From Escherichia coli (GTDB lineage: Bacteria; Pseudomonadota; Gammaproteobacteria; Enterobacterales; Enterobacteriaceae), in NCBI RefSeq assembly GCF_003334255.1, contig NZ_QOWU01000141.1: a DNA stretch of 2,037 nucleotides, one strand, 5' to 3'. Of the stretch, positions 1,306 to 1,689 are shown piece after piece; the first letter of the stretch is position 1, and the number at the start of each line of letters is the position of its first letter. The position numbers and the translations under genes are program-made. The notes under the pieces were generated by a model. It saw nothing but the letters and a program-made list of their open reading frames with translations. It was not told the origin of the DNA and ran no database searches.

Positions 1306-1689
1306 ATGTCAAATACATACCAGAAAAGAAAGGCAAGTAAAGAGTATGGTTTATATAATAAATGTAAGAAACTAAATGATGATGAATTATTTCGCTTACT
1401 TGATGATCGCAATTCCTTGAAAAGGATTTCATCTGCCAGAGTATTACAGTTAAGAGGGGGGCAAGACGCTGTTAGATTGGCAATTGAATTCTGCACTGAC
1501 AAAAATTATATCCGTAGAGATATCGGAGCATTTATACTCGGGCAAATATAAATTTGCAAAAAATGCGAAGATAATGTTTTTAATATTTTTAACAATATGG
1601 CATTGAATGATAAGAGTGCTTGCGTTCGAGCTACGGCAATCGAGTCAACGGCCAGGGAAAGATCATCAAAAGTTCACTTTTTGCACTAA
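1306..1689 (+). pseudogene. yibA: yibA-like HEAT-repeat protein (putative Rhs-associated immunity or lethality-reduction protein), disrupted by an in-frame stop and a 3' truncation
   Basis: Translation from ATG 1306 (MSNTYQKRKASKEYGLYNKCKKLNDDELFRLLDDRNSLKRISSARVLQLRGGQDAVRLAIEFCTDKNYIRRDIGAFILGQI) matches my recollection of the E. coli YibA N-terminus. TAA at 1549-1551 interrupts the frame. The same frame then continues as ICKKCEDNVFNIFNNMALNDKSACVRATAIESTA, still YibA-like, before changing to RERSSKVHFLH and stopping at 1687-1689. Full-length YibA is about 280 aa as I recall; only about 128 codons are present. Confidence 0.75.

Follow-up and report, generated by a model that had tools for sequence, protein, structure and literature searches.

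Full-length yibA neutralises the toxicity of the RhsA C-terminus (Vlazny and Hill, 1995, as summarised in PMC3150448). Toxins of the Ntox34 type pair with Imm-HEAT immunity proteins (PMC3482391). Toxin tips are common to different rhs loci (Jackson et al., 2009; PMC2935791), and orphan rhs-CT/rhsI modules have been described directly 3' of a full rhs/immunity pair, from which they differ in toxin/immunity type (PMC2935791; Poole et al., 2011, PMC3150448). A typical orphan module comprises part of the Rhs core together with a whole toxin tip and an undamaged immunity gene. In Escherichia coli K-12, the rhsA locus has an intact yibA, which provides immunity to RhsA. The closest described counterpart of the sequence studied here is yrhC (b4552), an MG1655 pseudogene that is mentioned in passing in PMC4738310.

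We analysed a stretch of 2,037 bp of E. coli DNA (the window), which is the rhsB-yhhH-yhhI region. Its sole mismatch to K-12 MG1655 is at position 1590 (T, not G), and strain G1/2 (NZ_CP060083.1) matches the window at 100% over 1100–1800, the T at 1590 included. All features described below lie on the plus strand unless stated otherwise, in the order rhsB 3' end, yhhH, a yibA relic and ISEc1/H-rpt with yhhI. The rhsB 3' end (7–846, from the RefSeq annotation of the identical K-12 sequence) consists of the end of the Rhs core followed by the rhsB-specific C-terminal toxin tip of DUF4329 type. Its residues 1–115 are matched by the NCBIfam models RHS_core and Rhs_assc_core, and its blastn homology to rhsA runs out near window position 324. 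The length of rhsB varies, with 4,056 nt in OSUCMP42NDM, 4,116 nt in Z1323CEC0013 and 4,236 nt in K-12. Directly 3' lies the small ORF yhhH (818–1201), which overlaps rhsB by 29 nt and is annotated as yhhH in all matching genomes. From its position, yhhH is presumed to be the cognate immunity gene of rhsB; a diverged relative at the same position is named ‘NTF2 fold immunity protein’ by PGAP. In some genomes an IS1 insertion interrupts the equivalent of the window, so that the match falls in two pieces over ~2.8 kb.

The rhsB-CT/yhhH module ends with a spacer (1202–1253) that has no homology to the rhsA locus by alignment or blastn. Homology to rhsA-yibA starts at 1254, which sets the left junction of the relic at 1253|1254 (alignment and blastn), and extends to 1652 at 97.0% identity (blastn). 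Its first 32 nt (1254–1285) align to the 3' end of K-12 rhsA and encode the final 10 codons of the rhsA-type (Ntox34) toxin tip with its TAG stop; they are the sole remnant of the cognate Ntox34 toxin. The 20-nt rhsA-yibA intergenic spacer (1286–1305) is the same as the spacer upstream of yibA, where K-12 also has 20 nt between the end of the rhsA CDS and the yibA ATG, and it includes a Shine-Dalgarno sequence, GGAGG, at 1293–1297, 8 nt ahead of the relic ATG. The yibA-like coding remnant, in the yrhC pseudogene region, occupies 1306–1652 and covers codons 1–115 plus 2 nt of 280, with 97.7% identity to yibA nt 1–347. We conclude that 1254–1652 is very probably the dead remains of an rhsA-type toxin/immunity module, lying 3' of the working rhsB-CT/yhhH pair of the RhsB element and disabled by ISEc1 truncation and by a nonsense codon, K82*.

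A consensus scan for a promoter or terminator belonging to the relic itself returned no convincing promoter upstream of 1306, and promoter-like sites were fewer in the window than in shuffled sequence. No Rfam family reached its gathering score for a structured RNA in the window. A minus-strand ORF at 1146–1502 (118 aa, TTG start) is regarded as arising by chance in the AT-rich sequence antisense to yibA. In the ISEc1 leader, 1771–1790 can form a 7-bp hairpin (CTCCTTA-CCTAAT-TAAGGAG); the Shine-Dalgarno sequence of yhhI, which has its ATG at 1797, makes up the 3' arm. A terminator scan flags this hairpin on the minus strand, and it may occlude translation of the transposase.

The frame that starts at 1306 translates to 1689 as MSNTYQ...ILGQI*ICKKCEDNVF...AIESTARERSSKVHFLH*, and K-12 YibA (280 aa) reads ILGQIKICKKCEDNVF at the region of the first stop. 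The original prediction, made from the letters alone, had placed a lysine of YibA under the TAA at 1549–1551, changed by one A-to-T substitution, and had asked for an alignment to full-length yibA. That alignment bears it out: reference YibA has Lys-82, encoded by AAA, with no natural stop at this codon, and AAA differs from TAA only in the A-to-T change at 1549. The protein length of roughly 280 aa given in that prediction agrees with the 280 aa of the YibA structure (PDB 1OYZ). Residues 1–116 of 1OYZ align to the fragment with E=3e-70, and 112 of the 116 aligned residues are identical. The NCBIfam model PRK09687 scores 158 bits on the relic over profile positions 1–117 of 285, where the curated cutoff is 275 bits, and Pfam HEAT_2 gives a marginal match (E=0.012). 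The relic falls short in both length and score because 158 bits is below 275 bits and no yibA 3' half is present in the locus.

Compared with YibA (b3594; PDB 1OYZ), the relic has the same start codon, the same ribosome-binding site and the same upstream rhsA tail. It differs in length (41%), in the TAA that interrupts its frame at codon 82, in having no adjacent Ntox34 domain and in its place at the rhsB rather than the rhsA locus. It is thus a homologue of the YibA/Imm-HEAT family that lacks the full length, the uninterrupted frame and the adjacent Ntox34 tip of a member. The comparison with orphan modules is similar. The relic stands directly 3' of a complete rhs gene with its own immunity gene and is of the other toxin/immunity type; where a typical orphan module has a core piece, a complete tip and an intact immunity gene, the relic has 32 nt of tip, no core and the broken 5' part of an immunity gene. 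The earlier description of an orphan immunity gene holds in this sense, since only the last 10 codons and stop of an rhsA-type tip precede the relic and the neighbouring working pair is rhsB-CT/yhhH.

The original prediction is borne out in each of its particulars and its reading is supported, but the relic is an already known, annotated pseudogene, real but ordinary. ORF 1306–1551 is MG1655 yrhC (NC_000913.3, 3,623,887–3,624,132), between yhhH and yhhI, and the two are the same feature with sequence identical save for base 1590. The reference annotation of yrhC ends at the TAA. PGAP extends the pseudogene to 1656; it annotates 1306–1656 as ‘HEAT repeat domain-containing protein’ or ‘lyase’, with an internal stop, incomplete and missing the C-terminus.

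After the first stop, the frame had been described as remaining YibA-like for 34 codons and then diverging to a stop at 1687–1689. The 34 codons are I83–A116, and the frame does stop there, but the truncation is an exact junction, 1652|1653, with the left end of ISEc1, not a gradual divergence. Homology to yibA stops at 1652 and blastn homology to ydcC, an ISAs1-family copy, starts exactly at 1653; dozens of IS copies in unrelated contexts (ydcC, ybfD and others) begin to match at window 1652–1654. The left inverted repeat of ISEc1, CAGGGAAAGATCAT, starts at 1653, and the right end is CAGGGCAAGATTAC (reverse complement). The two ends are 1,291 bp apart in K-12 and the inverted repeats are imperfect. 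ISEc1 has the marks of a discrete element: terminal inverted repeats, a transposase and the same left end in unrelated contexts. The left part of this element, also called H-rpt, fills the window from 1653 to 2037 (annotation and blastn) and includes the transposase gene yhhI from 1797, annotated as a 378-aa ISEc1 family transposase. The ‘divergence’ after codon 116 appears because the yibA frame runs into ISEc1 (1653–1689, read as RERSSKVHFLH) up to the TAA at 1687–1689. In its position at the right edge of an Rhs element, ISEc1/H-rpt (ISAs1 family) shows no difference from what is known; it is the truncation agent or boundary and lies outside the relic.

We looked for the rest of yibA in 14 kb around the K-12 locus with blastn (word size 7) and tblastn and found no other piece; therefore the 3' 59% of the gene has been lost, not merely separated. 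Two independent lesions had been proposed, and they are the nonsense codon K82* and the loss of codons 117–280. Among 40 evenly sampled records, the nikR-yhhJ site without an RhsB element held a hicAB toxin-antitoxin pair in 10, and at least one sampled record, WL297, has no insert there. The 67 nt directly to the right of ISEc1 in K-12 are absent from the sampled nikR-yhhJ sites that lack RhsB. An empty nikR-yhhJ site was considered as an account of the IS-proximal deletion and set aside: the site is variable (hicAB, empty or Rhs), and this is insufficient by itself.

With a junction-specific query, the truncated junction was found in 1,815 of 5,426 complete E. coli genomes. Only three of these 1,815 (OSUCMP42NDM, MFDS1016424 and S6aCHROMc) match a K-12-type test sequence with AAA exactly. 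In an even sample of 60 records, 54 scored 99.5%, one mismatch to the AAA query, which is also the score of the K-12, C600, BL21 and W3110 records in the sample, all of which carry TAA. This sampling, in which TAA is judged from the identity score to the AAA query rather than from the base read in each record, shows that the great majority of truncated copies have TAA, close to fixation. Full-length yibA occurs in about 2,950 genomes (2,952), and among the best matches to relic-type queries that were fetched, only two full-length copies have TAA, those of Z1323CEC0013 and 1919D62. A third candidate, MARGA_3, was rejected as it is intact and has AAA. The TAA is real, old within the RhsB element lineage and essentially confined to the truncated copy.

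Full-length yibA also occurs next to rhsB-type modules. At the rhsA site, which lies between yibF and yibH, many genomes have an rhs gene with the rhsB tip, yhhH, the same 52-nt junction and a full-length yibA, either intact or mosaic to varying degrees. We estimate ~1,100–1,200 genomes with an rhsB tip at the rhsA site, extrapolated from 11 of 50 evenly spaced rows. One of the rhsB-type genes at this site, in P27_L1_05.20, is itself a pseudogene with an internal stop. Two haplotypes, KSC207 and RM10042, have a full-length orphan yibA 3' of yhhH with the same −1 frameshift in an A9 run at nt ~696, which suggests that the stranded immunity gene is inactivated repeatedly even at full length.

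The truncation probably came first and the TAA second. This order is more economical because truncated copies with AAA exist and because the full-length TAA alleles switch haplotype at the edge of the relic homology. The reverse order, which we consider possible though unlikely, would have the TAA arise in a full-length orphan yibA 3' of yhhH at the rhsA locus, the dead gene being then copied to rhsB and cut by ISEc1; reversion or short patches of conversion would then account for the three truncated copies with AAA. Strain 1919D62 speaks for the reverse order: at its rhsA locus, rhsB-CT-yhhH precedes a full-length yibA that has TAA and every relic-type SNP, and the strain has no RhsB element at nikR-yhhJ. 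However, its allele is one of only two with TAA among the full-length copies examined (from the 2,952 genomes), and both lose the relic-type haplotype where the relic homology ends. The 3' part of the 1919D62 gene equals the intact MARGA_3 allele, and the yibA of Z1323CEC0013 is identical to that strain's own relic over the 398 nt that the two share. The truncated AAA copies also keep relic-type markers on both sides, at 1500 and 1617.

As read from its sequence, the relic is incapable of making a functional immunity protein. If it were expressed, the product would be at most 81 of 280 residues, as the original prediction had it. Such an 81-aa peptide could be made, since the start codon ATG and the Shine-Dalgarno sequence are intact and the relic is probably still co-transcribed with rhsB-yhhH. 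That 1306–1551 is instead a functional small gene, encoding an N-terminal HEAT fragment with a partial immunity or regulatory role, is very unlikely. The intact ATG with GGAGG 8 nt upstream would fit such a gene, as would the presence of TAA in nearly all 1,815 genomes with the truncated copy and the limits of yrhC in NC_000913.3, which are exactly those of the ORF. However, the near-fixation of TAA follows equally from common descent of one RhsB element, and the fragment is only 29% of a 280-aa HEAT-repeat solenoid, with a PRK09687 score far under the cutoff. Both the reference annotation and PGAP call it a pseudogene, and the same genome also has an intact yibA. It is a reasonable inference that the relic is no longer under selection and is selectively neutral as a gene, for which the few substitutions after the lesions are no proof.

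The relic had been described as a decaying gene. That part stands for K82* and the truncation but not for the seven other coding differences from K-12 yibA, which are an allelic haplotype. The K-12 relic has eight coding differences from K-12 yibA (Q19K, H35R, S64T, K82* and four synonymous) and three differences from rhsA-yibA upstream of the ATG, 11 sites in total. The window adds L95F (TTG to TTT at 1590, where K-12 and all yibA alleles examined have G), downstream of the stop, for nine coding differences from K-12 yibA. All of these except K82* and L95F are also present in full-length yibA copies at the rhsA locus, and since the SNPs are common to full-length copies they are an allelic haplotype rather than damage. 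The intact yibA of MS1665 has Q19K and H35R, and the full-length yibA of RM10042 has all relic-type differences up to 1500; S64T was seen only in fetched full-length copies that are each themselves disrupted. Only K82* and, in the window, L95F look like damage after orphaning.

Comparison of the flanks supports the same conclusion. Between the K-12 rhsB locus and rhsB-CT-yhhH loci with intact yibA at the rhsA site, none of ~1,560 nt differs up to window 1359, whereas past 1359 there are 8 differences in 293 nt (Fisher p=3.6e-7). We give hardly any credence to the idea that all eight K-12 differences (nine in the window) arose by accelerated pseudogene decay in place, without recombination. The differences do cluster in the pseudogene, but full-length yibA copies have the same SNPs in graded subsets (MS1665, whose gene is intact, the RM10042 type and 1919D62), and four of the eight K-12 differences are synonymous. 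The flank without differences from the P27-type loci includes a 104-nt non-coding spacer and synonymous sites, and it is against this flank that the excess in the 293 nt is significant.

The weakest alternative, in which TAA is an artefact of sequencing or assembly, or a mutation private to one strain, and codon 82 is really open, can be dismissed. TAA is one base from AAA, and the truncated copy does have AAA in three genomes. However, those three are the only exact matches to the AAA version among 1,815 independent complete assemblies, and the sampled remainder score like K-12 and other TAA strains; codons 117–280 are missing even with AAA.

Among rhsA-locus alleles, the change from relic-type to K-12-type SNPs falls in four different intervals: 1292–1359, 1410–1457, 1501–1548 and after 1617. 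MS1665 switches at 1410–1457, RM10042 at 1501–1548 and 1919D62 after 1617. In Z1323CEC0013, the full-length yibA has no difference from the strain's own rhsB-locus relic from −51 to +347, TAA included, where the two K-12 copies differ at 11 sites, and the strain keeps the rhsA tip at its rhsA locus. Its rhsA is split by the insertion of one A (+1) where the Ntox34 tip begins (−427 from the yibA ATG), and the end of its rhsA core, −687 to −507 from the ATG, has rhsB-type SNPs at 9 of 9 sites. From these alignments, we read the rhsA-locus patterns as homologous recombination and gene conversion in which the relic would serve as a patch of homology, with the direction of transfer inferred. This reading agrees with the sharing of tips between loci (PMC2935791). 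The staircase of haplotype switches could also come from allelic recombination between the rhsA loci of different strains, with the relic not the donor.

Among the cores themselves, K-12 rhsB and rhsA have one difference from ~400 bp to 3.2 kb upstream of the window start, and the rhsA-locus cores of other strains differ from the K-12 cores at 0–12 sites per 200 nt. The near identity of the K-12 cores fits concerted evolution by intragenomic conversion.

Taken together, two separate events disabled the relic. The left end of ISEc1 (1,291 bp) abuts yibA nt 347, with all downstream yibA gone, and a separate A-to-T event turned Lys-82 into TAA. The sole ‘activity’ left to the relic would be its 399 bp of DNA homology with rhsA-yibA, which with the Rhs core would bracket the CT/immunity cassette and be used in homologous recombination between the rhsB and rhsA loci. 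More specifically, we put at about even the chances that the relic's 399 bp act as the right recombination arm and the Rhs core as the left, moving rhsB-CT/yhhH into rhsA, and that the relic is occasionally the conversion donor of the nonsense codon to a working yibA, as in Z1323CEC0013.

As a gene finding, this adds nothing, as the same two lesions are already in the K-12 reference annotation and in PGAP. The details of recombination are an incremental illustration of known Rhs dynamics. The value of the relic is modest: it offers a clean case, open to dating, of the evolution of Rhs toxin/immunity loci, in which the arrival of a new tip/immunity cassette strands an old immunity gene that is then clipped by an IS and then struck by a nonsense mutation, while the relic still appears to exchange sequence with a functional paralogue 143 kb away. 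Should the recombination reading be true, pseudogene stubs of this kind can shape which toxin tip is found at which locus, and gene conversion from them can disable an immunity gene that is still live.
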